DNA from: Bacteroidetes bacterium 2013_40CM_41_45
Lineage (GTDB): Bacteria; Bacteroidota; Bacteroidia; AKYH767-A; 2013-40CM-41-45
DNA: 64,000 nt
Assembly (NCBI GenBank): GCA_002215675.1
Contig: NGFH01000002.1
Coordinates: forward strand, 221,887-285,886
Direction of reading: 5' to 3'
Part shown: positions 1,631-64,000 of the stretch, piece after piece
How the letters are laid out: the number at the start of each line of letters is the position of its first letter
Numbering within the stretch: position 1 is the stretch's first letter
Notes under the pieces: generated by a model
What the model saw: the letters and a program-made list of their open reading frames with translations, nothing else
Told to the model about the DNA's origin: nothing
Database searches by the model: none
Translations under genes and position numbers: made by a program

Positions 1631-2374
1631 TTAGTCCTCTTTTCTTTTTGCTTCCCTCGCCAATCCTTGAAATACTTCATCCATAGAAGAAGCGGAAAAA
1701 TGTTTTTTCAGGTTAGCCGGTGAATCAAGCGCACGGATATTTCCGTCTACCATGATAGAAACGCGGTGACAATATTCTGACTCATCCATATAATGTGTAG
1801 TGACAAATGCAGTAATGCCGGTATCAGCGGCTTGATAAATCAAGTCCCAGAATTGCCTGCGCGCTACCGGGTCGACACCGCTGGTAGGTTCATCGAGGAA
1901 AACAATTTTGGGCTGGTGAATAATGGCTACCAGGAAAGATAATTTTTGCTTCCACCCAAGCGGAAGAGAGCGGACTAATTTTTTTGCTGAATCATGCAGT
2001 CCCAATTGGTCCACCAGTTGCACGCTTTTTTCTTTTATCTCCTTATCCGTCAATCCATAAATGCCGGCATAGAAACCGATGTTCTCCATCACGGTCAGGT
2101 CTTCATAGAGAGAAAACTTCTGGCTCATGTAGCCGATATTTCTTTTTATATTTTCTGTTTGCTTGTACACATCATATCCCGCCACACTTGCAGTGCCCGA
2201 TGATGGAACCGATAAGCCGCAAAGCATCCTCATGGCTGTTGTTTTTCCTGCCCCATTTGCTCCGAGGAATCCGAAAATTTCTCCGGCACGAACATCAAAG
2301 GTGAGTTCGTTAGCAGCCACGAAATCGCCATATCGCTTCGTGAGCTTCTCTGCTTTTATTACCGTTGAATTCAT
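1631..2374 (-). CDS. ABC transporter ATP-binding protein
   Basis: Walker A GANGAGKTT, signature LSLGWKQKL, Walker B IVFLDEPTSGVD; 4-nt overlap with upstream ATPase gene. Confidence 0.9.
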   Translation of the reverse strand: MNSTVIKAEKLTKRYGDFVAANELTFDVRAGEIFGFLGANGAGKTTAMRMLCGLSVPSSGTASVAGYDVYKQTENIKRNIGYMSQKFSLYEDLTVMENIGFYAGIYGLTDKEIKEKSVQLVDQLGLHDSAKKLVRSLPLGWKQKLSFLVAIIHQPKIVFLDEPTSGVDPVARRQFWDLIYQAADTGITAFVTTHYMDESEYCHRVSIMVDGNIRALDSPANLKKHFSASSMDEVFQGLAREAKRKED

Positions 2375-3303
2375 GCTTCGCTCTTTTTTTCTTCAACCAT
2401 ATCGATAAAACAATCTTCAATGGCCGGCGTCACAGATTTTATCTCTACTCCCGTATGGCCTTTAGCTTGAAGATAGTTCAGAACTTCTTCTGTGTAATCT
2501 TTATCCCGCTCTTTAAAAGAGATGTGATGATATTCACCAAATGCGAAACAACTTCTCGTATGTTCGAAGGCCCGCAAATCATTCATCAGCTTGTACATTG
2601 CATCTGATTTAATGGCGAATAATTTTCCATGATATGATTTTACAATTCCTGAAGGTGTATCAACAGATAAAATTTTTCCTGACTGAATAAGCGCGATGCG
2701 GTCGCATAGCGTTGCTTCGTCCATGTAAGGTGTTGAAACCATAATGGTGATACCTTGCTGCTTCAATCGCTTCAGCATCTCCCAGAATTCTTTTCTCGAC
2801 ACGGCATCGACACCGGTCGTTGGCTCATCAAGAAAAAGAATAGATGGCTTGTGTATGAGAGCGCAGGAGAGTGCAAGCTTTTGCTTCATTCCACCCGACA
2901 ATTTTCCTGCCCTCCGTTTTTTAAATGGCTCAATTTGTATGTAAATATCTTTTATGAGCTCATAATTTTCTTCAATCGATGTTCCGAACACAGTGGCAAA
3001 AAAGCTCAGGTTTTCTTCAACGGTTAAATCCTGGTAGAGAGAAAATCTTCCCGGCATATAGCCAACATTGCCGCGAATGGTTTTGTAATCTTTAACTACA
3101 TCGTAACCTTCAACGGTTGCTGTTCCGCCATCGGGAAGTAAAAGCGTGGTGAGGATGCGAAAAATGCTTGACTTACCTGCGCCATCGGGGCCAATCAGTC
3201 CGAATAACTCACCCTTGCTGACCGACAGCGAAACATCATCAACGGCAACAACTTTTTCTTTGTCGTATTTCTTGGTGACATTATTTAATTCAACAGAGGT
3301 CAT
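2371..3303 (-). CDS. ABC transporter ATP-binding protein (second ATPase of the exporter)
   Basis: Walker A GPDGAGKSS, LSGGMKQKL signature, ILFLDEPTTGVD Walker B, extra C-terminal domain. Confidence 0.9.
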   Translation of the reverse strand: MTSVELNNVTKKYDKEKVVAVDDVSLSVSKGELFGLIGPDGAGKSSIFRILTTLLLPDGGTATVEGYDVVKDYKTIRGNVGYMPGRFSLYQDLTVEENLSFFATVFGTSIEENYELIKDIYIQIEPFKKRRAGKLSGGMKQKLALSCALIHKPSILFLDEPTTGVDAVSRKEFWEMLKRLKQQGITIMVSTPYMDEATLCDRIALIQSGKILSVDTPSGIVKSYHGKLFAIKSDAMYKLMNDLRAFEHTRSCFAFGEYHHISFKERDKDYTEEVLNYLQAKGHTGVEIKSVTPAIEDCFIDMVEEKKSEA

Positions 3304-11684: not shown

Positions 11685-12116
11685 TAGCTCTCGATACAAC
11701 TCATGTAAATTTTTATGCTGTTGCTAAACATCATGGCGTAACTATTCCTTCGCAGAGTTTTTATCCTGACACACTTTTCCTGAAATACCACGCCACCAAT
11801 TTCCCGTCTTCGCTTGCTGCTTTTGATACTTTTTATGTGGGCATTCCCGGAGACACTTTTGTTTACTTCAGAATACATCAACCCGATTCGATGTTTATCT
11901 ATATGACAGGGTGGGATACTATTATCAGCATGCAGGTAGTGGGCGGAATGCCGTACACAACTACTGCTGATACCGGAAGCATTCACCTCAATGTTCCGGT
12001 AACAGAATAATAATCCGACTGAGCTTATATTCATCATCATGATAGAATAAGGCGACACTTTCCGCTATCTTTGCACGCCCAATTCGCAAATTCATAAAGA
12101 TTTCGCTATTCATACC

Positions 12117-13928
12117 ATGCAGAGCATCAGAAATATCGCCATTATAGCCCACGTAGACCACGGAAAAACCACGTTGGTTGACCGCATTCTTCAGCAAACC
12201 AAAGTATTCCGTGACAACCAGGACATGGGAGAACTCATCCTTGATAGCAACGACCTTGAGCGCGAACGCGGTATTACCATTGTTGCAAAAAATGTTTCGG
12301 TCACATATAAAGACGTTAAGATAAATATCATAGACACTCCCGGCCACGCTGATTTTGGCGGAGAAGTGGAACGCGTGCTCACTATGGCTGATGGAGTTCT
12401 TTTGCTTGTGGATGCTTTTGAAGGGCCGATGCCGCAAACGCGTTTTGTTTTGCAGAAGGCGCTCAACCTGGGGCTCAGACCCATCCTTGTCATCAACAAA
12501 GTGGATAAGCCCAACTGTCGTCCTGACGAGGTGCACGAAGCTGCGTTTGATTTGTTCTACCACCTGGATGCGACAGAAGACCAACTGAACTTTCCAACCA
12601 TCTATGGCTCATCAAAACACGGCTGGATGGGTACCGACTGGAACAATCCCACCGAAGACATCACTGTTCTTCTCGACACCATTTTAAGTTATGTGCCGGC
12701 TGCACCGCACCATGATGGCACACCGCAGATGCTGATTTCATCGCTCGACTATTCAACGTTTGTCGGGCGCATTGCCATCGGCAGATTATATAGGGGAATA
12801 CTGAAAGAGAACATGCCTGTGTCACTAGTGAAGCGTGATGGCGCCATTTCCAAATCGCGCATCAAAGAACTTTTTGTGTTTGAAGGGTTGGGAAGAAAAA
12901 AAGTTTCTGAAGTAACCTCGGGAGAAATATGTGCTATTGTGGGTTTGGAGAATTTTGAAATCACTGATACAGTTGCTGACTTTGAAAATCCGCAGGGACT
13001 TAAAACCATTCCTATAGACGAGCCTACCATGAGTATGTTGTTTACCATCAACACATCTCCGTTCTATGGCAAAGACGGCAGGTTTGTAACGTCACGAAAT
13101 CTGCGCGACCGGTTGTACAAGGAAACGGAAAAAAATCTTGCGCTCAAAGTTGAAGACACTTCTTCTCCCGATTCATATACCGTTTATGGGCGCGGCATAT
13201 TGCATCTTTCTATATTGATTGAAACCATGCGCAGGGAAGGTTATGAATTGCAAGTGGGACAGCCGCAAGTAATCATTAAAGAAATTGACGGGCACAAATG
13301 TGAACCGGTTGAAACGCTTATTGTTGATACACCTGCTGATGTTGCCGGAAAAGTAATTGAGCTTGTGACACAGAAAAAGGGAGAACTCCTGGTGATGGAA
13401 CCGAAAGGTGATTTACAACATTTGGAATTTGAAATTCCATCGCGCGGATTGATTGGCTTGCGCAATGCAGTGCTTACGGTTACCGCAGGCGAAGCGATAA
13501 TGGGACATCGTTTTAAAGAATACCAGCCGCTGAAAGGAAATATTCCCGGAAGAATTAATGGTGTACTTATTTCGGGTGAAACGGGTTCGGCAACAGCTTA
13601 CTCCATTGATAAACTGCAAGAGCGCGGAAGATTTTTTATTGACCCGGGAGATGTAATTTATTCAGGCCAGGTGATTGGAGAGCAAATTCGCCCGGGCGAC
13701 CTTGTGGTGAATGTGATTAAAGCAAAACAGCTTACCAACATGCGCGCTACCGGAAGCGATGAGAATGTTCGCATTACTCCTAAAATAAATTTCTCTCTCG
13801 AAGAAGCGATGGAGTACATCGAGAACGATGAATACCTTGAAGTAACTCCTAAAGCATTACGTCTCCGTAAAATTTATCTTGACGAACACGAAAGGAAGAG
13901 GAGAAGTAAAAAAGAAGTAGCCGGCTGA
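12117..13928 (+). CDS. typA: translational GTPase TypA/BipA
   Basis: IRNIAIIAHVDHGKTTLVD G1 motif, DTPGHADF, NKVDKP; 603 aa. Confidence 0.95.
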   Translation: MQSIRNIAIIAHVDHGKTTLVDRILQQTKVFRDNQDMGELILDSNDLERERGITIVAKNVSVTYKDVKINIIDTPGHADFGGEVERVLTMADGVLLLVDAFEGPMPQTRFVLQKALNLGLRPILVINKVDKPNCRPDEVHEAAFDLFYHLDATEDQLNFPTIYGSSKHGWMGTDWNNPTEDITVLLDTILSYVPAAPHHDGTPQMLISSLDYSTFVGRIAIGRLYRGILKENMPVSLVKRDGAISKSRIKELFVFEGLGRKKVSEVTSGEICAIVGLENFEITDTVADFENPQGLKTIPIDEPTMSMLFTINTSPFYGKDGRFVTSRNLRDRLYKETEKNLALKVEDTSSPDSYTVYGRGILHLSILIETMRREGYELQVGQPQVIIKEIDGHKCEPVETLIVDTPADVAGKVIELVTQKKGELLVMEPKGDLQHLEFEIPSRGLIGLRNAVLTVTAGEAIMGHRFKEYQPLKGNIPGRINGVLISGETGSATAYSIDKLQERGRFFIDPGDVIYSGQVIGEQIRPGDLVVNVIKAKQLTNMRATGSDENVRITPKINFSLEEAMEYIENDEYLEVTPKALRLRKIYLDEHERKRRSKKEVAG

Positions 13929-51765: not shown

Positions 51766-51907
51766 ACTTATCATAGAGAGATTCACCCAGCATTTCAACG
51801 CACTGGTAAGGTCAAATAGACTGTTAATAAATATCAACTTGTTATCTTTTAACCTTTAAATTAAATTACCCTTCAAAATGACTCTGAAATTCAAAATTAC
51901 AAAGGCA

Positions 51908-54586
51908 ATGAAAAAAATATTTAGCCGAAACGCGGCACTTATAATGGGTTTACTGTTTTCCTGTGCATCCATTACCCAGGCGCAAAATAATAATGTTTAT
52001 GCATGGCCTGATACTGCCATTTGCCAGGGAGCATCCGTAACATTGAACGTGAGTGCGGTGCCTGCTATTGTGCCTAATTCTACCGTAATGATTACCCCCA
52101 TTGGTGATGACCAATGGAGTCCTATCGTTAGCCTTCCGTTTCCGTTTACTTTTTATGGAAACATTTACAATCAATGCATCATAGGTTCAAATGGCGAAGT
52201 CGGGTTTAACACTGTAAGTGCCGGTGGATATAATACCTGGCCCATTAATGTGACCATGCCGTCGCCAACTCCTGTGGACCTTCGCAACACCATCATGGGA
52301 CCCTGGCAGGATAATTATCCGCCATTGAGTGGTTCAATACGTGTAGGAACATTCGGAACTGCACCTAACCGGATTTTTGTTGCCGAGTGGGACGATATTC
52401 CTATGTATGCTTGTAATCAAACGTGTATAGGCAACCAGATTCAGTTGTATGAAACATCTAATATTATTGAAATACATATCGCTGCCAAAAATTTGTGCGC
52501 TACCTGGAACCAGGGACGCGCCATTGAAGGACTTAATAATGCAACAGGAACCATAGCGCACATTGTGCCGGGCAGAAATTGCTGTACCCAATGGACGGCA
52601 TTCCAGGATGCTTACAGGTTCACGCCTTCACCGGGTCCTACCTGGTATACAGTTGCACCGACTACCTTTTTACCTAGAATATTTGTTGCTTCAACCAATA
52701 TAAATATAACATGGCTTCTTAATGGTAACCCGGTTGGAAACGGCCCCACTCTGAATGTTTCTCCGGTAACTACTTCAAATTATATTGCTCAGGTATCGTA
52801 TACAAGCTGCGGTAATTATTCTTTCAGTGATACGGTAACCGTTACGGTTAGCCCTCCGTTCACGCTTAACTTCAACCCAATCGTAAATGTATTATGCTTT
52901 GGAGGCAGCACCGGCTCGGCTACTATTAATGCATCAGCCAATGCGGCGCTTCCCCTAGCATACTTGTGGAGCACTACGCCCCCGGAGACTACCGCGACAG
53001 GGAATAGTCTCAATGCTAACACTTATACGGTTACTGTTACCGATAACGGAGGGTGTATTGTAAGCGCCTCCGTAACCATAACGGAGCCGCCCGACCTTAT
53101 TGTTACACCCGACCCTCCTACAAATGTTCAGTGTTTTGGGCAGGGTAATGGAGTAGCTTCTGTTACTGTAAATGGCGGGGTCGCACCATACGCATATTTA
53201 TGGTCGAATGGAGCTAACAGTAATCCCAATACAAGTCTTGGTGGCAATACATATACCGTAACCGTTACCGATGCCAATGGATGTACAAAAACAGCGTCAG
53301 TGACTGTTACTGAACCTACACAATTGGTTATTAATCCTACCACTTCACAAACTATTTGTATCGGCACCTCATTAAATCTTTGCCCTAATGAATCGGGAGG
53401 TACCCCTGGCTATACGTATCTATGGTCTGACGGCTCTATGACGCAATGCATTAATGTGAGCCCAGCTATATCTACAATTTATACGGTAACCGTTACCGAT
53501 GCTAATAACTGCATAATTACTTCCTCTCCAATTTTCATTACGGTTAATCCTCCTCTCACTGTTACTGCGGTAGTAAATGACCCTGACATTTGTGTTGGCA
53601 CGCAGGTATTTCTAAGCGCTGTTGGCGTTAGCGGTGGCGATGGAAATTATTCTTACAACTGGATTCCCGGAATAGGCAGTACTGCAGGACCTCTTGGACA
53701 CTCTCCTGTTGTTACAACCAATTACACTGTTATAGTAACGGACGGATGCGGTACTCCTGCTGCAACCGACACGGTTACAGTTGTCGTAAACCCCTTACCG
53801 TTAGCACTGTTTAGCGGAACAAACCTTAGCGGTTGTGTTCCGTTTGATGCCTGCTTCCAGGATTTGTCAAACGTAAGCACGGGCAGCATTACACAATGGC
53901 TGTGGGATTTCGGAGATGGTTCTTCGGGTGCGGCAACTCAAAATCCGTGTCATACCTATACTTCTCCTTCATCGCCTAACCTGTATAATGTTACGCTCTC
54001 CGTTACATCCAATGCCGGATGCTCTCAATCATTCACCATCAATAATTATGTAGACGCACACCCGGTTACCACAGCATATTTCACAATGTATCCCAAGTTT
54101 ACTACCCTGGCAGAGCCCAATATTAATTTTGATGCGAGTGGAGACCCTCTGTGGATATATCACTGGTCATTCGGAGACGGATATTCTGACACCTCACAGA
54201 GTGTTACACACCCTTACACCGCTGTAGGCAAGTACCAGGTTTGTCTCTACACAACGAATACATATAACTGCGCCGATACGCTTTGCGATTCGGTTGATGT
54301 CCGCGCAGATTTCTCATTCTATGTTCCCAATGCATTTACACCCAACCACGATTTGGTTAACGAAGTATTTACTCCTATGGGCCGTAGCTTCCAGGAGTAT
54401 GACCTTACCATATACGACCGCTGGGGAACTATTATTTTCCGTTCAAAAGACATAAGATTTTCCTGGGATGGTAAACTAAGCAATGGCGATGATGCCCCGA
54501 CAGGTATTTATATTTACAATATCGATTTGCGAGACCTCGATGGCGTAAAGCATAATTTTATCGGCAACGTGGCGTTGATTCGTTAG
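51908..54586 (+). CDS. SprB-repeat/PKD cell-surface protein with T9SS type-B C-terminal domain
   Basis: Signal peptide; repeated C.G...G.A...........YLWSNG......LG.NTYTVTVTD.NGC modules; C-term FYVPNAFTPNHD...IYIYNIDL..GNVALIR. Confidence 0.7.
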   Translation: MKKIFSRNAALIMGLLFSCASITQAQNNNVYAWPDTAICQGASVTLNVSAVPAIVPNSTVMITPIGDDQWSPIVSLPFPFTFYGNIYNQCIIGSNGEVGFNTVSAGGYNTWPINVTMPSPTPVDLRNTIMGPWQDNYPPLSGSIRVGTFGTAPNRIFVAEWDDIPMYACNQTCIGNQIQLYETSNIIEIHIAAKNLCATWNQGRAIEGLNNATGTIAHIVPGRNCCTQWTAFQDAYRFTPSPGPTWYTVAPTTFLPRIFVASTNINITWLLNGNPVGNGPTLNVSPVTTSNYIAQVSYTSCGNYSFSDTVTVTVSPPFTLNFNPIVNVLCFGGSTGSATINASANAALPLAYLWSTTPPETTATGNSLNANTYTVTVTDNGGCIVSASVTITEPPDLIVTPDPPTNVQCFGQGNGVASVTVNGGVAPYAYLWSNGANSNPNTSLGGNTYTVTVTDANGCTKTASVTVTEPTQLVINPTTSQTICIGTSLNLCPNESGGTPGYTYLWSDGSMTQCINVSPAISTIYTVTVTDANNCIITSSPIFITVNPPLTVTAVVNDPDICVGTQVFLSAVGVSGGDGNYSYNWIPGIGSTAGPLGHSPVVTTNYTVIVTDGCGTPAATDTVTVVVNPLPLALFSGTNLSGCVPFDACFQDLSNVSTGSITQWLWDFGDGSSGAATQNPCHTYTSPSSPNLYNVTLSVTSNAGCSQSFTINNYVDAHPVTTAYFTMYPKFTTLAEPNINFDASGDPLWIYHWSFGDGYSDTSQSVTHPYTAVGKYQVCLYTTNTYNCADTLCDSVDVRADFSFYVPNAFTPNHDLVNEVFTPMGRSFQEYDLTIYDRWGTIIFRSKDIRFSWDGKLSNGDDAPTGIYIYNIDLRDLDGVKHNFIGNVALIR

Positions 54587-54682: not shown

Positions 54683-56080
54683 ATGAATTACAGAACCGAA
54701 AAAGATACCATGGGAACCGTCCAGGTTCCTGCCGATAAATACTGGGGCGCACAAACGCAGCGTTCTATAGAGAATTTCAATATCGCCCGCGACATTAACC
54801 GCATGCCCTTGGAAATTATCCGGGCTTTTGCTGTTCTGAAAAAAGCTGCTGCCCTCACCAACCTGGATGCAGGTGTTTTGTCCAAAGAAAAATGTGACCT
54901 CATTTGTAAAGTATGCGATGAAATTCTTGATGGAAAATTAGACGACCAGTTTCCTTTGGTTGTATGGCAGACCGGAAGCGGCACGCAAAGCAATATGAAT
55001 GTTAACGAAGTGATTGCGTACCGCGCTCACGTTCTTAGCGGAGGGAAATTAACGGACGAGAAAAAAATAATTCACCCCAATGATGATGTAAACAAATCGC
55101 AATCGTCTAACGATACATTTCCAACAGCAATGCACATTGCCGCATATAAAACTCTTGCAGAGACTACGCTGGCGGGGATGAAAAAGCTTCGCGATACGCT
55201 GGATAAGAAAGCGAAAGAAAATATGAAGGTGGTAAAAATCGGCAGGACGCACCTGATGGATGCTACCCCGCTAACCCTTGGGCAGGAACTTTCCGGCTAT
55301 GTTTCGCAGCTTGACCATGGAGGGCGCGCCATAGAAAATTCTATGAAGCATCTTTCAGAACTTGCACTGGGTGGCACAGCCGTTGGAACAGGAATCAATA
55401 CACCAAAAAATTATTCAGTGAATGTTGCAAAGAAGATAGCTGAGCTTACCAAGCTTCCTTTTATTACGGCTGAAAATAAATTTGAGGCGCTTGCAGCACA
55501 TGATGCCATAGTGGAATCTCATGGAGCATTGAAAACCGTTGCTGCCTCGCTTATGAAAATTGCAAATGATATCCGCCTGCTGGCATCGGGCCCGCGGTGC
55601 GGTATCGGTGAAATATTTATTCCTGACAACGAACCGGGCTCATCCATTATGCCGGGAAAAGTAAATCCAACGCAGTGCGAGGCCATGACCATGGTTGCTG
55701 CGCAGGTTTTGGGCAATGATGTTGCTATAAACATCGGTGGGGCTTCAGGTCAATTTGAACTGAATGTTTTTAAGCCGATGATAATTTATAATTTTCTTCA
55801 CTCGGCACGACTTATTGGTGAAGTATGTGTATCGTTCAACGACAAATGTGCTGTTGGCATAGAACCTATTCACGAGAACATCCGGAGAAATCTTGAAAAC
55901 TCCCTGATGCTGGTTACAGCTTTAACTCCGCATATCGGTTACGAGAACGCAGGAAAGATTGCCAAGAAGGCCCAAAAGGAAAATAAAACCCTTCGCGAAG
56001 CCGCCATTGAACTGGGACTCCTTACTTCAGAGCAATTTGACGAATGGGTAAATCCTGAAAAAATGGTAGGGGATATTTAA
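54683..56080 (+). CDS. fumC: fumarate hydratase class II
   Basis: 465 aa; [16 protein letters not shown] lyase signature. Confidence 0.9.
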
Positions 56081-56093
56081 AAGGCATTAATCA

Positions 56094-57179
56094 CTACGTA
56101 AACTTTTCGCCCTTCTTTACTTTCACATCGCTTACAAGCTGGCGGATTTCCTGCTCTTGTGATTTGGGGCAGATGAGCAGAATATTTTCTGCTTCCACCA
56201 CAATAAAATCTTCAAGCCCTTTAATTACGGCAAGCTTGTCTTTAGGAATATTGATGATGCAATTTTTAGTGTCATCCAACATTGCATGGTTCCCGGTTAC
56301 AGCGTTTCCATTGGCATCGTGCGGCAGGTGCTCATACAGCGAGGTCCATGTTCCCAAATCGCTCCAACCGAAATCAGAAGCAAGCACGTAAACATTCTTT
56401 GCTTTTTCCATGATACCATAATCAATGGAAATATTTTTGCACTGTGAGTATGCTTTCCTTATGAACTCTGCCTCTTCTGGAGTGTTATAAATATTTGCAC
56501 CGTCTTTAAAAAGAGTAGCTACTTCGGGCAGATATTCTTCAAATGCCCTGAGAATGGCTTTGGCATTCCAGATGAAAATTCCGGAGTTCCATAAAAAGTC
56601 ACCACTGCGTATAAAAAACTTCGCCATCTCCTCGTTGGGCTTTTCGGTAAAAGTTTTTACAGGGCGTATGTGCAACATTTCTGTGGAGCCATCTTCCCTG
56701 AACTGGATATATCCATAACCCGTGTCGGGCCGGTCGGGCCTGATGCCCAGGGTAACAAGCGCATTTTTCTTCTTGGTAAACTCCAGCGCAGAACCGATGG
56801 ATTTAATGAATGACGGCTCATCTTTAATCAGGTGGTCACTGGGAGTTACTACAATGTTAGCCTCACGGTCAAGCGCATAGATTTTATTACAAGCATAGGC
56901 AACGCAGGGAGCTGTATTTCTGCGCTGCGGTTCGGCAATAATCTGCCGGGGTTTTATACCCGGTATTTGCTCCTGCACCAGGTCGGTATAGGATTCGCTG
57001 GTAACAATAATTATGTTTTCTTCAGGACAAATAATCTTAAACCTGTCATACGTTTGGCGGAGCAGCGATTTGCCGGTGCCCAGGATATCGAGAAACTGCT
57101 TAGGGTGCCCGGTGCGGCTTAAAGGCCAGAATCGGCTGCCGATACCACCCGCCATTATCACACAATACCGGTCTTGCAT
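56094..57179 (-). CDS. mannose-1-phosphate guanylyltransferase
   Basis: 361 aa; IMAGGIGSRFWPLS nucleotidyltransferase motif, no PMI domain. Confidence 0.85.
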   Translation of the reverse strand: MQDRYCVIMAGGIGSRFWPLSRTGHPKQFLDILGTGKSLLRQTYDRFKIICPEENIIIVTSESYTDLVQEQIPGIKPRQIIAEPQRRNTAPCVAYACNKIYALDREANIVVTPSDHLIKDEPSFIKSIGSALEFTKKKNALVTLGIRPDRPDTGYGYIQFREDGSTEMLHIRPVKTFTEKPNEEMAKFFIRSGDFLWNSGIFIWNAKAILRAFEEYLPEVATLFKDGANIYNTPEEAEFIRKAYSQCKNISIDYGIMEKAKNVYVLASDFGWSDLGTWTSLYEHLPHDANGNAVTGNHAMLDDTKNCIINIPKDKLAVIKGLEDFIVVEAENILLICPKSQEQEIRQLVSDVKVKKGEKFT

Positions 57180-57349
57180 GAGCGCAAAGTAAAGAAAAAT
57201 GCAGGAGTGATTTTAAATAACCTAAATACCTCAGGTCAATATTTTTCTCCCATTTGAGCGGCTCAAAGAAGAAAAAGTATTTTTGAGAACGAAAAATTAC
57301 ACAAATCCTGAATTTTAATGGCACGGAAATTTAATTCTATTTTTGCAAG

Positions 57350-58789
57350 ATGAAAATTACTCGTTTTGTCCTTTCTGATTACCATCAGTTTAGGTATCTC
57401 AATATTAATTTGACTTATCCAAAAGAGCATGTAAAAGCAGGGCAACCTTTAGATAAAGTTTGCTTCATTGGAAAAAATGGAACGGGAAAAACTACAATTC
57501 TTAAAACAATAAAACAGTTCCTGCTCATTTTTGAGTTAAATGCACTTCATCAAGGGCTTCTTGAAGATAGTCACGAGCCTACCCAATTTTGCTTTGAGGT
57601 TGAATATAAAAATAAAAAATTTTTATTTGGGAAATTCATTCTTTTTTTACCTAATGCAGAAACTAGAATAAGGGCTAATGTGCAAGTATTAGAGAGAAGT
57701 TTTTACGAACAAATACCTGACTTCTTTGAGAATGTTTTTGTAAAAAAAGATTCTAATCTTATTCAAAAAATATTTGAGGAAAGCAGAAAGCCAGATCATG
57801 TTGCATCAGATGCCATTATAAGAAACGAAATAAAAGCCAAACTATCTAGAGAGAGTTTGTTAGTTTATGCACCAACAGAATATAATATTAATAAATCAGG
57901 TTCAGAAATTTATTCTTTAACTGATTTGAATGAAGGGTTGAAATTTGGAAATGCGTTGCCTTATTACCACGAAATCTCTTTTGATTACTTGAAAAACTTT
58001 TGGTCTTTACTGATTTATCAAGTACAACTTAGAGAAAGGGAAAGAAATGAATTTGAAAATACAAAAGATAATCGTAAAAGAACAAAGGAAGAATTAATAG
58101 AAATTTTTGAAAAAGAACATCCGGAAATTTTAAAAATAATTGCAAAAAAATGGGATATTATTTTAGGCCAGGTCGGACTTTATTTAGATGCTGAAAATGC
58201 AAAGAAACCTATTGTCTTAACCGATCAATTAATTGCTTACATAAAAGATAAAAAAAATCATAAAAATATTCCCTTTGGAGCTTTAAGTTCAGGAATCAAA
58301 AATTTGATTTATAGTCTTGGTTACTTGACTTCTCTCTATTTTAATCGCTCAATTAAATCATCAACAGTAATATTTGATGAACCAGAATTTAGTTTGTTTC
58401 CTGATATATTGTTAAAATTAATTGACTTTTATACAAATCCAAAAGATTTTCCTAACACACAATTTTTCTTTGCAACTCATAGTCCACTTATTGCCTCACA
58501 ATTTGAACCTGAAGAACGAGTTTGTTTACATTTTGACGATGAGAGAAAAGTTTATTCTACGACGGGTATCGCTCCGCTTGGAGATGATTCATCGGATTTA
58601 TTGCTGAAAGATTTTGGACTAGAGGAGGTTATGCCTGCTTATGGAGTATCAATGTGGAAAAAGTATCTTGAGCTAAAACGAAAAATTGATAAAGAACCTA
58701 ATCCAGATAAAATTAAAAATATCCTGAAAGAATTTGCTGATTTAAGACAAGATTACAATTTCCCAGATCTTTATGAACCGAATAAGTAA
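57350..58789 (+). CDS. ABC-like/SMC-like ATPase (AAA_15/AAA_21-type), PtuA-like candidate defence ATPase
   Basis: Walker A GKNGTGKTT (res 42-50), signature LSSGIKN, Walker B VIFDEPE, H-loop FATHSPL; AT-rich; TAnnTTTG box 57338-57345 4 nt before ATG. Confidence 0.75.
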   Translation: MKITRFVLSDYHQFRYLNINLTYPKEHVKAGQPLDKVCFIGKNGTGKTTILKTIKQFLLIFELNALHQGLLEDSHEPTQFCFEVEYKNKKFLFGKFILFLPNAETRIRANVQVLERSFYEQIPDFFENVFVKKDSNLIQKIFEESRKPDHVASDAIIRNEIKAKLSRESLLVYAPTEYNINKSGSEIYSLTDLNEGLKFGNALPYYHEISFDYLKNFWSLLIYQVQLRERERNEFENTKDNRKRTKEELIEIFEKEHPEILKIIAKKWDIILGQVGLYLDAENAKKPIVLTDQLIAYIKDKKNHKNIPFGALSSGIKNLIYSLGYLTSLYFNRSIKSSTVIFDEPEFSLFPDILLKLIDFYTNPKDFPNTQFFFATHSPLIASQFEPEERVCLHFDDERKVYSTTGIAPLGDDSSDLLLKDFGLEEVMPAYGVSMWKKYLELKRKIDKEPNPDKIKNILKEFADLRQDYNFPDLYEPNK

Positions 58790-59342
58790 GCCAGCGAATT
58801 CAGAAATAATCACACGTGGCATTGTTTATAAAGAGGGTGGTGATAACTCAGGACTTAGAGAGATTTTAATTAGGGAGCAAAAAAATGTCTGTGCTTATAC
58901 TCAAGCGAGGGTCACAGAAGCTTTTTCTGTTGACACAGAACATTTTAATCCTACTCTAAAGAATACTGATGATGATAATTATAACAATTGGTTTGCGGTT
59001 AGTACAAAATGGAACCGTCAAAAAAGGAGTGTAGAAAAGTGGAATGAATACCAAGAAATCTTACATCCAACAGACGAAGAATTTGAAAAAAGAATAATCT
59101 ATAAAAACGGTGTGTATGAATGGAACGAAGGGGATGATGAAGCAAGACATCTTATAGAGTACTTAAACTTAAATCAAGAAAATCTTGTTAGGGATAGGAA
59201 AAGTCATTTAAAAACTTTGCAATTACTCCTTGAAAAATTTGGTAATGATACAGAACAGTTGAGAAATTATCTAGAAACTGAAGATCCTAATCAAATCCAA
59301 TATATCCGTGCTATACAAGAGGAGTTAGGAATTACTTTTTAA
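58773..59342 (+). CDS. HNH-like small protein (PtuB-like), partner of upstream ATPase
   Basis: 17-nt overlap with ATPase gene; ..VCAYTQARVTEAFSVDTEHFNP..N..W.. resembles degenerate HNH (CxxC...D/EH..P...N) core. Confidence 0.5.
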   Translation: MNRISKPANSEIITRGIVYKEGGDNSGLREILIREQKNVCAYTQARVTEAFSVDTEHFNPTLKNTDDDNYNNWFAVSTKWNRQKRSVEKWNEYQEILHPTDEEFEKRIIYKNGVYEWNEGDDEARHLIEYLNLNQENLVRDRKSHLKTLQLLLEKFGNDTEQLRNYLETEDPNQIQYIRAIQEELGITF

Positions 59343-59466
59343 AAAACATCACAAGAATTCTCTCCCCCGCCAAATTAAGCCCGATGGAGCGACCTTTTCG
59401 GGAGCGAGAGCGGGACGGGAGGTTGTGAGGGCTACAAAAGGGTGCTTCATGATCTTTTTTCTTCAG

Positions 59467-59517
59467 TTATTCTATTCCTAACAGCTTCAGATAGGCAGGG
59501 TCAACTTTGAATTTCAC
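59467..59517 (-). pseudogene. 3'-terminal remnant of a TPR-membrane-protein paralog
   Basis: Minus-strand reading VKFKVDPAYLKLLGIE* closely parallels C-terminus RKIDPAYLKLLGVQ* of the gene at 60872-62794; ~38/45 nt identity. Confidence 0.4.
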
Positions 59518-59522
59518 GCTTT

Positions 59523-60212
59523 TCATTGTTCATTATTTTCATCAACCGGCGGGGCAGGTGTATTTTTATCCGCACCAAACATATATTGTAAAATAAAATG
59601 CCATACAAGATTATTTCCGTTATTAAAGGTTGAAGTAAAATAGAAAGGCGGAGGGGAGTTGCGTTTAAAAACAGGTATCAGAGAATTGCTGTAGCGAAAA
59701 GAGAAATTAAAATGCTGAGAAAAATTATACCCTATTCCAGCAAGCAAACTCACATCCGTTTTGTTGAGATAGCTATCGTTACCATATGAATAAAAATTAT
59801 CACCGTCTGCCTTGTGACTGATTAATTTTCCCAGTGAAATTCCTGTGTGAAAATCAAATCTGTTTATAGGTTTTTTACCAATGTTGAAATTGAGACGCCA
59901 TTTAATAATAAGCGGAAATTCAAGATAGTTAAAAGAAATTTTATAGTAGCCGTTGCCGTTGGAGTCAGCGGGCTGCTGAGTTCCTTTTTGAATGTAATTA
60001 AGCTCTAACCTTAGGGTCGCTTTTTGACTTAAAACAGTGCTTACCGTGCCTCCAAAAGTAAAACCGGCTTTATGAAAATCGGTGTCATAATCATACAGGT
60101 CAGAGGCGTACACATCGGTAGCAACAAGTCCGCCGGAAATGCCTGCGTTGAAGCGTTGGGCATTCGCATGAATTGCAACCGGCAATAAGAGCACACAGAG
60201 AATTTTTTTCAT
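59523..60212 (-). CDS. outer membrane beta-barrel protein (porin-like, OMP_b-brl family)
   Basis: 229 aa, signal peptide, alternating beta strands, AT-rich. Confidence 0.55.
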   Translation of the reverse strand: MKKILCVLLLPVAIHANAQRFNAGISGGLVATDVYASDLYDYDTDFHKAGFTFGGTVSTVLSQKATLRLELNYIQKGTQQPADSNGNGYYKISFNYLEFPLIIKWRLNFNIGKKPINRFDFHTGISLGKLISHKADGDNFYSYGNDSYLNKTDVSLLAGIGYNFSQHFNFSFRYSNSLIPVFKRNSPPPFYFTSTFNNGNNLVWHFILQYMFGADKNTPAPPVDENNEQ

Positions 60213-60233
60213 TTGTCATTCCATCAATTGCGT

Positions 60234-60650
60234 TCATCCATATTTGGTCATTAATTCATCAACTTCTTCTGCCAATGTTTTCTTTGCATGATGCTCTTCC
60301 TGATTTTTAATATAACTGATTAGCGATTGAACTTGTGATTCGCTGACAGATACTGCAAAGTAATCATCTTGCCAGAAAAACTTTTCTTTAGTCAGTTTAT
60401 TTTTATTTATCCAATAAGAAGATTCGCCTTTTATTAATTGAGATACTTTTGAAATGGATAGGTCTTTTCCTAATGAAATCAAGCAATGCATATGTTCGGT
60501 ATGTCCGTTGATGGCTTGAAGAAATATTTATTTTTCCTTACAGTTGCTGATGACGTGTTTTTGAACATCAATTTTGACTTCTTTGGTGAGCCAAGGCATT
60601 CTGTTCTTAGTTGAGAATACTAAATGAACCCAGATTTTAACGTAAGACAT
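60234..60650 (-). pseudogene. tnpA: IS200/IS605-family (Y1 HuH) transposase tnpA with a single in-frame TAA at codon 41
   Basis: MSYVKIWVHLVFSTKNR...KEK*IFLQAINGHTEHMHCLISL...ISYIKNQEEHH: HuH motif and catalytic Tyr region present, one nonsense codon (tta at 60528-60530). Confidence 0.7.
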
Positions 60651-60811
60651 GATATTTGATTTTAATATTTTTTATTCGGCTAAAGCCAATTTTTCTTTTA
60701 ACACATTCACAGTTGGCTGAAGCCAACTGCAATGAATCAATAGGATTTATCCATTGCCGTCAGCTTTAGCTGACGGATAAAATAGAATATAATTAATTGG
60801 CTTTAGCCAAA
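60234..60811 (-). mobile_element. IS200/IS605-like (or RAYT/REP-like) element: tnpA plus upstream hairpin block
   Basis: Hairpins agttggctgaagccaact (60711-60728), ccgtcagctttagctgacgg (60757-60776) and inverted pair cggctaaagccaat (60677-60690)/attggctttagccaa (60796-60810); no room for a right-end hairpin. Confidence 0.5.
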
Positions 60812-60871
60812 TCCATTAGTTTTTTAATTAATTTTCTTAATCAATTTTTCCATCAAAAATCTATGTTTCCA

Positions 60872-62794
60872 TTATTGCACTCCTAATAGCTTAAGATAGG
60901 CAGGGTCTATCTTTCGGCCCAGCTGCCGGGCTTTAAGCACATCGGCCCTTGCCGCCTCTATTTGTCCCAATTGGTTGTAGGAATAAGAGCGGTTTTGCCA
61001 GTAGACAGGTTCTGAAGGCATCAACTCAATGGCTTTTGAAAAGTCCGCAAGCGATTCTTTATGCTTGCCCATTTTCTGAAGCGCCACACCCCGTGAATTA
61101 TAAATGCCATCATCGGTCGGAACAAGTTTTAGATACTTTGTAAAGTCATCTACCGCTTTTTGGTATTGACCTACCTGGTCATAATATATTCCTCTGTTAA
61201 AGTATGTTTTGGCAAAAGTTGAGTCAATCACTTCGGCTTTCGCAAAATCATCTTCCGCTTTGGCATATTCATTTTTGCGGATGTAGATTAATGCGCGGTT
61301 GGCATACGTGGTAACTTTTTTTGCATCCAACGCAATGGCCTGGTTGTAATCAGACAGCGCAAGGTCATCCTGCCCGCGCTCGAAATAAATATTGCCCCGG
61401 TTGTTATAGGTTAATGCATATTTAGGATTGATGGATAATACCTTATTATAGTTCTCCAACGCCTTATCGTTTTGCTTTAAGCTGCGGTAATAAACTCCGA
61501 GATTATCATATCCCACATCAGAGCCGGGATATTTTGCAACGTTATCTCTCCACAATGTCCCGCTGTTTTTCCATACCAGGCAGCGCTGGTAACTCATCAC
61601 CGCAAAGACAACGGCATAAATCACAAAAATGCTTTTTACAAGAAATGAAATGTTCGCCTTTCGTTCCGTTAAATTCTGTAAAGAAGTCGCAGCAATAAAA
61701 AATAATCCGAAGTAAGAAACATAGGTAAAACGTTCTGCCATAAATGCTTTGCCCGCGCCAACCACCTGCAGCACAAACATTACATTGACTAAAAAGAACA
61801 GAAGCCCGAAGACTACATTTCTATCCGTGCGGAATTTTTTAATAACCCAAACAACACCGGCAATAAGAAGCAACGGTGTTATGTAATACAGCGTAGGAAG
61901 CACTCCCTCCGTCTTTTGCGGATAGGGATAATAGGCAGACAAGTTTACAGGGGCGAAGAATCGCACCAGGTAACTTGTAAGCGCATAACATGCATACAAG
62001 ATGCGCTCATACAAGGGATACGTTTCATTCATAATAAGCGAATCACCTGTCTTAAGGAAATATATTCCGGCTATTCCCGTTGCAGCCGACAAAATAAAAA
62101 ATGGAATTTTTTCCATGATGAGAGAAAACTTTAACGGGCGTTTTTCCAGATAATCAATAAGAAGCATGGAAAGCGGAAGTGATACCGCCTGTATTTTTGA
62201 AAGCATTGAAAGAACGGCAAGCACAAGCATCAGCAAGTAAAGAAGAACTTGTGCACCGGGCTTTCGTACCCATTTTATGTACGCAATAAGGGCTCCGAAA
62301 TAAAACGAAGCAAACATTACATCTTTTAATTCTGTAATCCATGCTACCGATTCCACACGCATGGGATGAATGGCAAAAAGCAATGTGATGGCACCGACAA
62401 CAAAAGATTTTTTGGTGAGAAGCCGTGCCGTCCAAAAGACAAGCGCAGTACAAACCAGGTGCAATAAAATATTAACCAGGTGATACAGGTATGGTTCTAA
62501 CCCCACCTGTGAACGTATCAAAGCAAAGACAAGGATGGGAAGCGGGTTGTAGTTATTGCCAACAGACTGCGTAAATATTGCTTTTACATTTTGAGAATTA
62601 AGGTTTACGGTCAGGTGGTTATCGGTAATGTTAAGCCCGTCATCCCAGGTGTAAATGAGGTCGTTTTTCAGGGCGGGATAAAAGACTATGAATGTAACCG
62701 CCAGGATGGCAGGAAGCAGCCATACAGGGAATTTTTTTAGCTGAATTGTAGCCGTTTTAGCGGGTTGATGAATTTTCTTTTTATCTTTTTTCAC
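60872..62794 (-). CDS. membrane-anchored TPR-repeat protein (multi-TM N-terminal domain + C-terminal TPR array)
   Basis: 640 aa; ~10 TM helices then repeated TPR motifs (..YNNRGNIYFERGQDDLALSDYNQAIALD..). Confidence 0.7.
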   Translation of the reverse strand: MKKDKKKIHQPAKTATIQLKKFPVWLLPAILAVTFIVFYPALKNDLIYTWDDGLNITDNHLTVNLNSQNVKAIFTQSVGNNYNPLPILVFALIRSQVGLEPYLYHLVNILLHLVCTALVFWTARLLTKKSFVVGAITLLFAIHPMRVESVAWITELKDVMFASFYFGALIAYIKWVRKPGAQVLLYLLMLVLAVLSMLSKIQAVSLPLSMLLIDYLEKRPLKFSLIMEKIPFFILSAATGIAGIYFLKTGDSLIMNETYPLYERILYACYALTSYLVRFFAPVNLSAYYPYPQKTEGVLPTLYYITPLLLIAGVVWVIKKFRTDRNVVFGLLFFLVNVMFVLQVVGAGKAFMAERFTYVSYFGLFFIAATSLQNLTERKANISFLVKSIFVIYAVVFAVMSYQRCLVWKNSGTLWRDNVAKYPGSDVGYDNLGVYYRSLKQNDKALENYNKVLSINPKYALTYNNRGNIYFERGQDDLALSDYNQAIALDAKKVTTYANRALIYIRKNEYAKAEDDFAKAEVIDSTFAKTYFNRGIYYDQVGQYQKAVDDFTKYLKLVPTDDGIYNSRGVALQKMGKHKESLADFSKAIELMPSEPVYWQNRSYSYNQLGQIEAARADVLKARQLGRKIDPAYLKLLGVQ

Positions 62795-62853
62795 GGAGCG
62801 AATAACGAATCGATTCGAATATACGTATTAAAGAAAGTTAACGTTGATATATC

Positions 62854-63513
62854 ATGGCGCATCAAAAGTATTTATACATTTTCCTGTTTACCATTCTTTC
62901 GGTAAAATGTTTTTCTCAGACGGACGGTTTGCCCGTTGACGATTCCCCATCAAAGAAAGTATTTTTTTCAATGGATTATCGCAATGGCTTTATCAGGTCA
63001 ACGGAAGCTCATGTAGTTGGTTTTCGCGCGGGGGTGGAAGTAGGGCAAAAATATCGTTTGGGAGTGGGGTATCATTATCTTTCTTCAGAAATTATCCGCG
63101 GCATACCTGTGATGCAGGAAGGTGCAACCATAAACACCAATGCGCGCGTTCATCTCAGGTATGGAAGCGTTTCTGCCGAATATATTTTGTTCACCAGCGA
63201 GCTTTGGCAGGTATCAGCACCGCTTATTCTTGGCATTGGCTCTTCGTATTATGAGCCGCCTTCCAACAAATATCCTGAAACCAACAGGCAATTTACACTT
63301 GTCATCGAGCCCGCTGTAACGGTGCAGTATAATATCATTCCTTTCATCGGAATCGGCACCGGCATAGGGTACCGCTTTATGCCCGCAGGCGATGGCAATT
63401 TACGTTCGGTATTTGCAACTCCTGTCTATGACTTGCGGCTTAAGCTGCTCATGAACGAAGTGGCTGAAGCGCTCTTCCCTAACGGCTTGTGGAAAAAGAA
63501 AAGGCAGGAATAA
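62854..63513 (+). CDS. hypothetical exported beta-rich protein
   Basis: 219 aa with signal peptide, no recognisable motif. Confidence 0.4.
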   Translation: MAHQKYLYIFLFTILSVKCFSQTDGLPVDDSPSKKVFFSMDYRNGFIRSTEAHVVGFRAGVEVGQKYRLGVGYHYLSSEIIRGIPVMQEGATINTNARVHLRYGSVSAEYILFTSELWQVSAPLILGIGSSYYEPPSNKYPETNRQFTLVIEPAVTVQYNIIPFIGIGTGIGYRFMPAGDGNLRSVFATPVYDLRLKLLMNEVAEALFPNGLWKKKRQE

Positions 63514-63546
63514 GAAAGTAGAGCATCATAATATTATTTTTGTTCG

Positions 63547-64000
63547 ATGCCTTCAAAAAACCTTAACCCGGATTCCGAAGCAGGTGATTCCACGCCATCT
63601 TTGGCAGAAAAGGAATTTGAAAAAGTTCTGCGCCCATCGGTTTTTGATGACTTCGCAGGGCAGCGGAAAGTAGTGGACAACCTGCTGGTGTTTGTAAAAG
63701 CAGCGCAGCAAAGAAAAGAATCACTTGACCACGTTTTGCTTCACGGCCCTCCCGGACTGGGAAAAACAACACTGGCATATATCATAGCCAACGAGCTGGG
63801 AGTAAATATACGTACCACTTCGGGTCCTGTTATAGATAAGCCGGGCGACCTTGCCGGGCTGTTGACTAACCTGGAACCGAACGATGTTTTATTCATTGAT
63901 GAGATTCATCGCCTGAGCCCTGTGGTGGAAGAATACCTCTATTCTGCAATGGAGGATTATCGTATCGATATCATGATTGAATCAGGCCCCAATGCGCGCT
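63547..64000 (+). CDS. ruvB: Holliday junction DNA helicase RuvB (partial, runs off window end)
   Basis: [12 protein letters not shown]..., Walker [12 protein letters not shown], Walker [10 protein letters not shown]; no stop within window. Confidence 0.9.

Follow-up and report, generated by a model that had tools for sequence, protein, structure and literature searches.

The window, by which we mean the whole 64-kb stretch of DNA analysed, contains at 57180–60871 an interval bordered by two conserved anchor genes, namely manC, coding for a mannose-1-phosphate guanylyltransferase, and a gene encoding a membrane TPR protein (Table 1). Some sources name homologs of the latter gene protein O-mannosyl-transferase; the gene is called PMT-like here. 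Synteny of manC was observed in all relatives, its nucleotide identity to manC of L025 being 89%, and orthologs of the TPR gene, with amino acid identities of 80–83%, likewise occur in syntenic contexts. Because the TPR gene and manC are separated by only 37–119 bp in six related lineages (L019, L020, L021, L022-24, and the P0294 contig), where manC directly follows the TPR gene, the interval at 57.2–60.9 kb is accessory in this group, as presumed in a preliminary description of the locus made from the sequence. The TPR–manC spacer, normally ~40–120 bp long, is filled in layers among this group of uncultured Bacteroidota. It harbors an intact IS200-type tnpA alone in L016, a hairpin relic of the tnpA element in L020, and the series tnpA–OMP–Nramp in the closest relatives L025 and L026, while the window shows a tnpA pseudogene, an OMP gene, the remnant of a TPR-gene tail, ptuB, and ptuA. 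The empty and the alternative states of the slot, like the identities of its genes, are directly evident from these loci, and the interval is layered, not one island.

Table 1. Features of the TPR–manC interval and its borders (positions in the window)
Feature	Position	Strand	Evidence or remark
manC (mannose-1-phosphate guanylyltransferase), conserved anchor on one side of the slot	56094–57179	-	PF00483 (5e-39), PF22640
Conserved manC upstream region, 39 nt; collinearity with L025 resumes	57180–57218	-	39 nt upstream of the manC ATG identical in window and L025
AT-rich 2.3-kb replacement segment (leader, ptuA, ptuB, GC-rich spacer, TPR-tail remnant, ~10-nt junction filler)	57219–59518		Takes the place of Nramp in L025/L026
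ptuA, predicted Septu ABC-type ATPase, 479 aa	57350–58789	+	PADLOC PDLC00274 (1.3e-85), profile positions 1–438 of 438
ptuB, predicted Septu HNH nuclease partner, 189 aa	58773–59342	+	PADLOC PDLC00347 (9.4e-57), profile positions 1–187 of 195
GC-rich 109-nt spacer, ptuB stop to remnant	59343–59451		GC 0.541 (54%)
TPR-gene tail remnant: last 14 codons KVDPAYLKLLGIE plus stop (59467–59508), ~15 nt of 3' flank	59452–59508	-	~57 nt; 34/41 to resident tail
ATGAAAAG, identical to the initial 8 nt of Nramp in L025, overlapping the OMP stop	59519–59526	-	End of blastn block and junction comparison
Outer-membrane beta-barrel (porin-family) gene (OMP), 229 aa, older slot resident	59523–60212	-	PF13568 (2.8e-20)
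IS200/IS605-type Y1 transposase (tnpA) pseudogene	60234–60650	-	PF01797 (1.3e-26)
Four-hairpin block, left-end-like, upstream of tnpA	60675–60812	-	Sequences seen only here in the 64-kb window
Tail of the resident, intact TPR gene, second copy of the repeat	60867–60913	-	Direct repeat
Intact membrane and TPR protein gene, 640 aa, anchor on the other side of the slot	60872–62794	-	TPR_1 (2.5e-39), further TPR families

The inactivated IS200-type tnpA with its hairpins and the AT-rich beta-barrel gene, both pointed out in the preliminary description as lying between the remnant and the intact TPR gene, represent the older content of the slot. Premature stops interrupt tnpA at codon 41 (TAA, 60528–60530) and codon 139 (TGA, 60234–60236); intact orthologs of 144 aa are present in L016 and in L025, the latter scoring 68.3 bits on the NCBIfam IS200 model NF033573 (cut-off, 55 bits). 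Like members of the IS200/IS605 family, the window copy has a Y1 HUH transposase gene (PF01797) following subterminal hairpins, but it is not an intact element comprising a transposase and both hairpin ends. The L016 element possesses hairpin repeats on both sides of tnpA, whereas in the window they are confined to the upstream side, the right-end repeat of L016 is absent, and there are no other copies within the 64 kb. Its occurrence at the same site in three lineages suggests that the element behaves as an old resident rather than as an active IS. The hairpins are ordered A-C'-B'-A' in the window and A-B-C-A' in L025, L026, and L016, the inner pair being inverted as judged from minus-strand blastn matches. 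This inversion spans 110 bp. Classification as a RAYT gene with REP repeats was rejected on account of a score of 33.5 bits on model NF047646, as compared to a cut-off of 80, and of the restriction of the hairpins to 60675–60812 in the window. The OMP gene begins 21 nt after the truncated tnpA ORF and shares 84% amino acid and 87% nucleotide identity with the gene that occupies the same position after tnpA in L025 and L026. Since the identities of tnpA and OMP to their L025 counterparts (0.86–0.87) are similar to those of the core genes manC and fumC (0.88–0.89), the data fit vertical inheritance of both genes.

Comparison with L025 by blastn defined the limits of the variable part. One collinear block (82.3% identity) covers window positions 61209–59519 and ends at position 1724 of L025; the other (88.6% identity) covers 57218–54600, corresponding to L025 3058–5673. 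Between them, the window contains 2300 bp and L025 the 1333 bp of Nramp (1725–3057), which share no homology. Collinearity breaks exactly at 59518/59519 and at 57218/57219, and the segment 57219–59518 therefore takes the place of Nramp. The short match to the start of Nramp at 59519–59526, of which about 5 nt lie past the OMP stop, is possibly a last trace of an Nramp gene that would have been deleted. Alignment of manC with its L025 counterpart revealed no mosaic break, so that a homologous crossover on the manC side is not visible. The segment is identical in L015 and L031, both of the window's population, and is found only in this population. Its AT-richness, already mentioned in the preliminary description, is reflected in a GC content of 0.322, as compared to 0.43 for the window and 0.42 for the L025 Nramp, which suggests that it came recently from a foreign source and has yet to approach the base composition of the host.

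The ATPase and HNH genes that make up most of the segment (57350–59342) are adjacent on the same strand, overlap by 17 nt, and form one operon. PtuA shows Pfam matches above the cut-offs to AAA_15 (4.8e-20) and AAA_21 (1.2e-14) and has the motifs Walker A (GKNGTGKT, residue 41), signature (LSSG, 312), Walker B (VIFDE, 340), and H-loop (THS, 376); in the PDB, weak matches (E~1e-5) to the PtuA protein of retron I-A cover the C-terminal ~100 residues. PtuB contains the HNH-like motifs EHF (56), NYNN (69), and WNRQK (80); as read off the sequence, not all of the cysteines usually involved in zinc binding are present (CAYTQ, WNRQK). Its matches to NCBIfam PtuB/TIGR02646 were below cut-off, and neither a Pfam match nor a PDB sequence match was found. 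Based on the full-length PADLOC matches, the overlapping co-oriented arrangement, and the same pairing in L029 and L030, where a PtuB homolog likewise follows PtuA, the two genes are assigned to a stand-alone Septu system with a predicted anti-phage function. The NCBIfam models of retron-Ec78 PtuA and PtuB scored far under their cut-offs, no additional ORF (≥40 aa) similar to reverse transcriptases was found in 57180–59520, and the Rfam search of 56900–61100 (E≤1) gave no match, so that no retron ncRNA was seen. Doron and colleagues reportedly described Septu in 2018 as a stand-alone pair of a PtuA ATPase and a PtuB HNH nuclease. Publications on Septu portray PtuA and PtuB as an ATPase–nuclease complex that is kept in check before infection and cleaves nucleic acid once infection occurs, with DNA nicking and tRNA-Tyr cleavage among the reported activities (PMC12819146, PMC13096335, PMC12640716). 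By analogy to the family, the pair in the window may form such an infection-triggered complex. It shares with Septu (PMC12819146) the two-gene overlapping operon, the ABC-type motifs of PtuA, an HNH-type PtuB of ~190 aa, and the absence of an adjacent retron reverse transcriptase or ncRNA. In contrast, it is very divergent from the characterized members, has a PtuB with fewer than the usual zinc-binding cysteines, resides in an uncultured member of the Bacteroidota, and is known from sequence. The nearest non-self relatives of PtuA are 55–56% identical and occur in unrelated contexts; relatives in viral contigs or plasmids were not found. For the spacer downstream of ptuB, no copy was detected elsewhere in the window or in the fetched loci and no match in Rfam, and its fold z-score was 0.39.

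The remnant forms the inner end of this segment. The minus strand at 59467–59517 reads VKFKVDPAYLKLLGIE followed by a stop codon, and the intact TPR gene ends in the same orientation with KIDPAYLKLLGVQ and a stop. The top direct repeat within 56000–63600 pairs 59462–59502 with 60867–60907 at a spacing of 1405 nt, with 34 of 41 nt (83%) identical, and the 14-mer AGATAGGCAGGGTC occurs at just these two places in the window. Elsewhere in the window, the TPR tail matched without gaps at no more than 24/41, and the maxima obtained from 20 shuffled windows were 22–26/41. When the remnant was aligned locally with the tails of orthologous TPR genes, five of them gave scores of 33–60 (60 for the L025 tail), and the resident tail scored 51 (shuffle maxima, 23–26); the score of 21 for the L021 tail was no better than those of shuffles. 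The repeat itself is real, and the C-terminal copy proposed in the preliminary description stands for the last 14 codons and the stop, with homology extending ~15 nt beyond the stop codon. Its first four codons (VKFK, 59509–59517), however, are not demonstrably TPR-derived; they fall within the junction filler (59509–59518, ~10–13 nt). An integrase-borne island with att duplication was dismissed as well, because no integrase was found among the ORFs of 57180–60871 and the repeats, only 83% identical, flank the old tnpA and OMP layers, not the variable segment.

The last codons of the remnant, GGA ATA GAA TAA, are those of L019 and L025, whereas the resident tail has GGA GTG CAA TAA. Over 42 nt, the remnant differs from the resident tail by 7 and from the L025 tail by 7–8 mismatches, distances so nearly equal that its source lineage is not statistically assignable. 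Being as close to the ortholog tails of other lineages (best, L025) as to the resident tail, it looks like the tail of an allele or ortholog that came along with the Septu cassette, or else like a duplicate of the resident tail. It retains frame, stop, and 83–85% identity to functional tails, as compared to 70% identity between window and L025 for the neighboring non-coding hairpin block; this low decay argues for a young remnant.

We consider it reasonably probable that a Septu cassette together with a foreign TPR tail recombined into the slot, replacing Nramp. The IS200/IS605-type element constitutes the first layer; it is intact in L016, survives in L020 as a hairpin relic, and in the window has two stops and no right end. 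The porin-family gene abutting the tnpA stop, common to L025 and L026, where Nramp comes next, is the second. The 2.3-kb segment with the stand-alone Septu pair, exactly at the Nramp position, is the third layer, and the 57-nt TPR-tail copy at its inner edge is a recombination scar, which indicates that the cassette was once located immediately downstream of a TPR gene. This former neighbor would most likely have been an ortholog in another lineage, the tail arriving with the cassette at the shared locus. Septu may thus have inserted into the short TPR–manC spacer of a related lineage, from which a fragment extending from the TPR tail through the manC side would have recombined into the ancestor of the window. 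On the manC side, the exchange would have been a homologous or near-homologous one; at the OMP/Nramp boundary, an illegitimate join would have deleted Nramp and left the foreign tail as non-coding DNA. Events in which one end joins by homologous and the other by illegitimate recombination have been documented (PMC3240628), and such recombination has been invoked for sequential gene displacement leaving gene fragments (PMC5361080). Since no donor-type locus (TPR–Septu–manC) was found, we infer in which direction the exchange ran, that the tail is of foreign origin, and by which mechanism recombination took place; the 5–8 nt of Nramp, the base composition, and the low decay of the 57-nt piece weakly point to this polarity. 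The absence of a mosaic break in manC and the filler at the junction count against this scheme.

Alternatively, the remnant could be the original end of the window's own TPR gene, with Septu already downstream, if a 1405-bp block was inserted 13 codons ahead of the stop, through Campbell-type integration of a circular molecule or through a recombination event anchored within the TPR gene. Together with the hairpins, tnpA, and OMP, the block would have supplied a new tail that displaced the old one, and L025 and L026 would derive from the same ancestral state, with a later exchange of remnant and Septu for Nramp. Such a duplication in situ, which we judge rather unlikely, would explain why same-orientation repeats flank exactly the 1405 bp with hairpins, tnpA, and OMP, why the remnant (V...GIE and stop) is nearer to the ortholog consensus than the resident tail (KI...GVQ and stop), and why its 3' flank resembles the L025/window type rather than the L019/L021/L022 type. 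However, it calls for another replacement in L025/L026, placed so precisely that Nramp starts right at the OMP stop, and the succession TPR–hairpin–tnpA also occurs in L016 and, in relic form, in L020, both without remnant or Septu, so that this layer looks old. The foreign base composition of the Septu segment, as opposed to that of Nramp, which matches the genome, likewise disagrees with it, as do the divergence of the repeats and the lack of an integrase. Transposition of IS200/IS605 elements, moreover, produces no target duplication. Even more speculative, and hardly to be expected, is a role of the TPR tail and the IS200-type hairpin block as a reusable recombination site or cassette-capture platform, at which single genes or operons (porin, Nramp, Septu) would be swapped via the Y1 transposase or the hairpins, with the inversion and the duplicated tail as by-products.

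The preliminary description had ascribed the whole 57.2–60.9 kb island to a single event that truncated a former TPR paralog, of which the last codons survive. Its reading of the fragment as the footprint of a rearrangement or insertion holds, and the fragment is a true TPR-tail homolog, diverged from the resident copy, in an interval that the six lineages lack entirely. A single event is nevertheless very improbable, as the interval is a composite of which L016, L020, and L025/L026 show intermediate states, and the breakpoints against the closest relative enclose 57219–59518 only; the remnant does not bound the island, but marks the inner end of its newest layer. Nor does a truncated paralog agree with the data: just ~57 nt are present, including a 3' flank that resembles the one at the orthologous locus, no TPR paralog is found in the 64-kb window, and every 80–83% relative with a readable context is a syntenic ortholog. 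Chance similarity or convergence on a conserved C-terminal motif, implying no history at all, might be suggested by the shortness of the fragment and the wide conservation of DPxYLxxLG at the C-terminus of this protein family, but is refuted almost beyond doubt by the shuffle test and the local alignments. The match extends at the DNA level to synonymous positions, the stop codon, and the non-coding 3' flank, and the remnant, being non-coding, is under no selection that could drive convergence.

The acquisition of Septu by recombination, as favored here, has parallels in other systems. As in defense hotspots between core genes, for example the pan-genome islands of E. coli (PMC10121019), a fixed slot is either empty or variously filled, including with a defense system. 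The slot in the window, however, is tiny, is devoid of an integrase, tRNA, or recognizable mobile-element borders, and has also held non-defense genes (porin, Nramp transporter) and a decayed IS200-type element. Similarly, in sequential gene displacement by homology-facilitated illegitimate recombination (PMC3240628), as seen with T6SS effectors of Vibrio cholerae (PMC5361080), the resident gene of a syntenic locus gives way to a module coming from a related genome, and a short 3' fragment of the flanking gene stays behind as a scar; in the window, by contrast, such a mechanism is presumed, and no microhomology is definable at the junctions.

The locus thus appears to be an ordinary case of defense-gene turnover, which leaves the current understanding of defense islands and of Septu unchanged. 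It would nevertheless provide a clean, base pair-resolved example of a defense system moving between related genomes without a visible mobile element, in which the cassette keeps 57 nt of its previous neighbor, so that the scar may reveal its former address. In addition, the locus contributes a divergent predicted Septu pair of uncultured Bacteroidota, with 56% identity to the nearest other PtuA, and documents a small hotspot of gene turnover between the PMT-like TPR gene and manC.

The interval between the TPR gene and manC (the slot) is organized as listed in the table. SprB/CHU_C and Por_Secre_tail genes near the locus point to an uncultured member of the Bacteroidota; by TPR protein, the nearest named relatives are Chitinophagales and Sphingobacteriales MAGs (≤47% identity). 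One cell-surface adhesin gene (902-aa SprB/PKD/CHU_C protein) diverges much faster than its flanks: its N-terminal half shows 52-67% nucleotide identity to L025, a locus of the closest relatives (51900-52900 versus L025 7400-8370), whereas the flanking genes are 85-90% identical.

Features of the TPR-manC slot and its borders, in window coordinates
Feature	Coordinates	Strand or order
TPR gene	62794-60872	minus
Block of four hairpins	60812-60675	minus-strand order, after TPR gene
Y1_Tnp gene (tnpA) with internal stop	60650-60234	minus
Porin-family beta-barrel gene (OMP)	60212-59523	minus
TPR-tail remnant	59452-59508	minus-strand order, after OMP
GC-rich spacer (109 nt, 54% GC)	59343-59451	between remnant and PtuB
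PtuB	59342-58773	opposite to TPR gene
PtuA	58789-57350	opposite to TPR gene
manC	57179-56094	minus-strand order, last

The preliminary description had treated 57180-60871 as a single AT-rich island that truncated a TPR paralog. Comparison with slots of relatives, fetched as the contexts of TPR orthologs at 80-83% identity, argues for a layered interval. In L019, L020, L021, L022-24, and the P0294 contig, TPR gene and manC are separated by 37-119 bp without any gene. L016 contains an intact tnpA alone, flanked on both sides by hairpin repeats; L025 and L026, the closest relatives, contain hairpins, an intact tnpA, OMP, and an Nramp transporter gene; and the window contains hairpins, a tnpA pseudogene, OMP, the TPR-tail remnant, PtuB and PtuA. 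The 57.2-60.9 kb segment is indeed absent in six lineages, but it is partly filled in L016 and L025/L026, and so is not a single island. Truncation of a former TPR paralog is likewise unsupported: none was seen in the window, and close homologs with readable context are all syntenic orthologs. Searching the genome contigs with the TPR protein yielded relatives at ≤40% identity only. In L020 (3755-3908), the 119-bp spacer retains two relic hairpins of the IS200-type element without tnpA, and loss of the TPR stop codon extends the protein (GIENTIRPPHK). The TPR gene of L025 (205-215; equivalent in L026) carries an in-frame TGA about 45 codons before the gene end (tac tgA caa versus tac tgG caa in the window), at which the gene caller therefore ends it; either the gene has become a pseudogene or the assembly is wrong here.

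Alignment of the window with L025 (blastn) revealed two collinear blocks, 61209-59519 corresponding to L025 1-1724 (82.3%) and 57218-54600 corresponding to L025 3058-5673 (88.6%). The breakpoints enclose 57219-59518 only, i.e., 2300 bp (Septu and remnant), unrelated to the 1333 bp (Nramp) at this position in L025. The left block extends 8 nt into Nramp, of which the window retains ATGAAAAG, and the right block begins 39 nt upstream of manC. At 32%, the GC content of the replacement segment is below that of the window (43%) and of Nramp (42%). Nucleotide identities to L025 are 0.89 for manC, 0.88 for fumC, 0.87 for OMP, 0.86 for tnpA, 0.84 for the TPR tail and 0.70 for the hairpin block; judged by these per-gene values, the tnpA-OMP layer looks vertically inherited along with its flanks.

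The Y1 gene matches PF01797 (1.3e-26; IS200/IS605-type), and its L025 ortholog scores above the NCBIfam IS200 cut-off and below the RAYT cut-off, so that the window copy is a degenerate IS200/IS605 element rather than a RAYT. Relative to intact 144-aa orthologs it is interrupted by TAA (codon 41) and TGA (codon 139), and four hairpins lie alongside; the earlier recognition of an inactivated IS200-type tnpA with hairpins was correct. In L016, a direct repeat of ~57 nt with hairpins A and B occurs on both sides of the intact tnpA (11932-11998 and 12525-12581); these repeats likely are the complete ends of this IS200-type element. The window and L025/L026 lack the right-end copy, and OMP starts directly after tnpA there. 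An IS-with-cargo model is unsupported, because right-end hairpins were found neither behind Nramp in L025 nor behind Septu in the window. The inner two hairpins are inverted as a block of ~110 bp, bounded by the short inverted repeats ttggctaaagcc / ggctttagccaa, in the window (60675-60812) and in L031 from the same population (order A-C'-B'-A'), as compared to L025 (400-565), L026 and L016 (11936-12065; order A-B-C-A'); the inversion may be fixed, or the block may be invertible.

The ATPase and HNH genes noted in the preliminary description encode homologs of PtuA (PDLC00274, 1.3e-85, whole profile covered) and PtuB (PDLC00347, 9.4e-57). Septu combines an ABC ATPase, PtuA, with an HNH nuclease, PtuB, that nicks DNA (PMC12819146); cleavage of tRNA-Tyr has been reported as well (PMC13096335). 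The window cassette is likewise a PtuA-PtuB pair, but a divergent one: neither protein is close to characterised members, and by sequence the pair is a new member of the Septu systems. Walker A, signature, Walker B and H-loop motifs are present in PtuA, and EH and N-rich HNH-like motifs in PtuB; the reading frames overlap by 17 nt, and PtuB also follows the PtuA homologs of loci L029 and L030. Neither a retron reverse transcriptase (ORFs) nor an ncRNA (Rfam) was found beside the pair. P0171 derives from the same population as the window (L031, 99.9-100% identical) and provides no strain-level variation. Promoter and terminator scans detected sites no more numerous than in shuffled sequences, and Bacteroidetes-type -7 motifs were dropped, the matches being inexact or too near start codons. 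The divergent manC/PtuA region of 170 nt contains a perfect 7+1+7 palindrome (TTTGAGC C GCTCAAA, 57253-57267), which lies within the replacement segment and might be an operator or terminator-like element. The GC-rich spacer lies between two AT-rich regions; no repeat copy of it was found, nor an Rfam family, a significant fold or a clear ORF.

The copy of the TPR C-terminus proposed earlier is real. Positions 59462-59502 match 60867-60907 in the same orientation at 34/41 nt, 1405 nt apart, which is the top direct repeat of the region; the 14-nt core occurs at these two sites only in the window. Elsewhere in the 64 kb, the TPR tail has no match better than 24/41, and the maxima in shuffled windows are 22-26/41. 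In gapped local alignment, the remnant scores 51 against the resident tail and 60 against that of the L025 ortholog (shuffle maxima 23-26), and homology extends ~15 nt beyond the stop codon, placing the remnant at 59452-59508. An extension of the homology into 59509-59518 was rejected, as it needs two gaps in 19 nt. Of the peptide first described as copied, the tail codons and stop hold, but TPR origin of the first four codons (VKFK) is not demonstrable. The remnant keeps frame and stop at 83-85% identity to functional tails, and its peptide is nearest to the C-terminus of protein P0003 (NVDPAYLKLLGLE).

Together with its 3' flank, the remnant is robustly inferred to record a time when a TPR gene had spacer, PtuB and PtuA immediately downstream of it, a position corresponding to the slot seen empty in six lineages. 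We consider it rather probable that Septu was imported from the TPR-manC slot of a related lineage, replacing Nramp by one-sided recombination. Septu would have entered the short spacer of that lineage, and a fragment reaching from the TPR tail of that lineage across Septu to its manC side would then have been taken up by an ancestor of the window already carrying tnpA-OMP-Nramp. Homologous recombination at the manC side would have been coupled with an illegitimate event at the OMP/Nramp boundary, deleting Nramp. One-sided recombination of this type is documented (PMC3240628), and T6SS effector genes displaced one after another have been explained by it (PMC5361080). The direction from Nramp to Septu is suggested because the window retains the Nramp start, the cassette has a foreign base composition, the remnant is well preserved next to neutral DNA with only 70% conservation versus L025, and the remnant fits the tails of other lineages slightly better than the resident tail, albeit its source cannot be told from mismatch counts in 42 nt.

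The import model is weakened by these undiagnostic mismatches, by manC and fumC, in which sliding identity versus L025 revealed no mosaic break marking a crossover, and by the donor locus, which was not found: metagenome contigs searched with PtuA contained two loci only, at 55-56% identity and without TPR or manC nearby, and viral contigs (scan) and plasmids (tblastn) gave no match. In the main rival reading, which fits the 1405-nt direct-repeat geometry, the remnant would be the TPR gene's own original tail; a block consisting of a new tail, the hairpins, tnpA and OMP would have inserted into it, L025 later exchanging remnant and Septu for Nramp. This sequence of events appears unlikely, since it requires one more precisely placed event and since L016 and L020 imply an age for the tnpA layer that does not agree with it. 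A reusable site for cassette exchange, made up of TPR tail and hairpin block and served by the Y1 enzyme, is very improbable; its positive support is limited to co-location and the hairpin inversion.

The remnant is a textbook-type recombination footprint, with nothing categorically new at the locus, and the TPR-manC slot is a small example of the defence and accessory hotspots located between core genes (PMC10121019).
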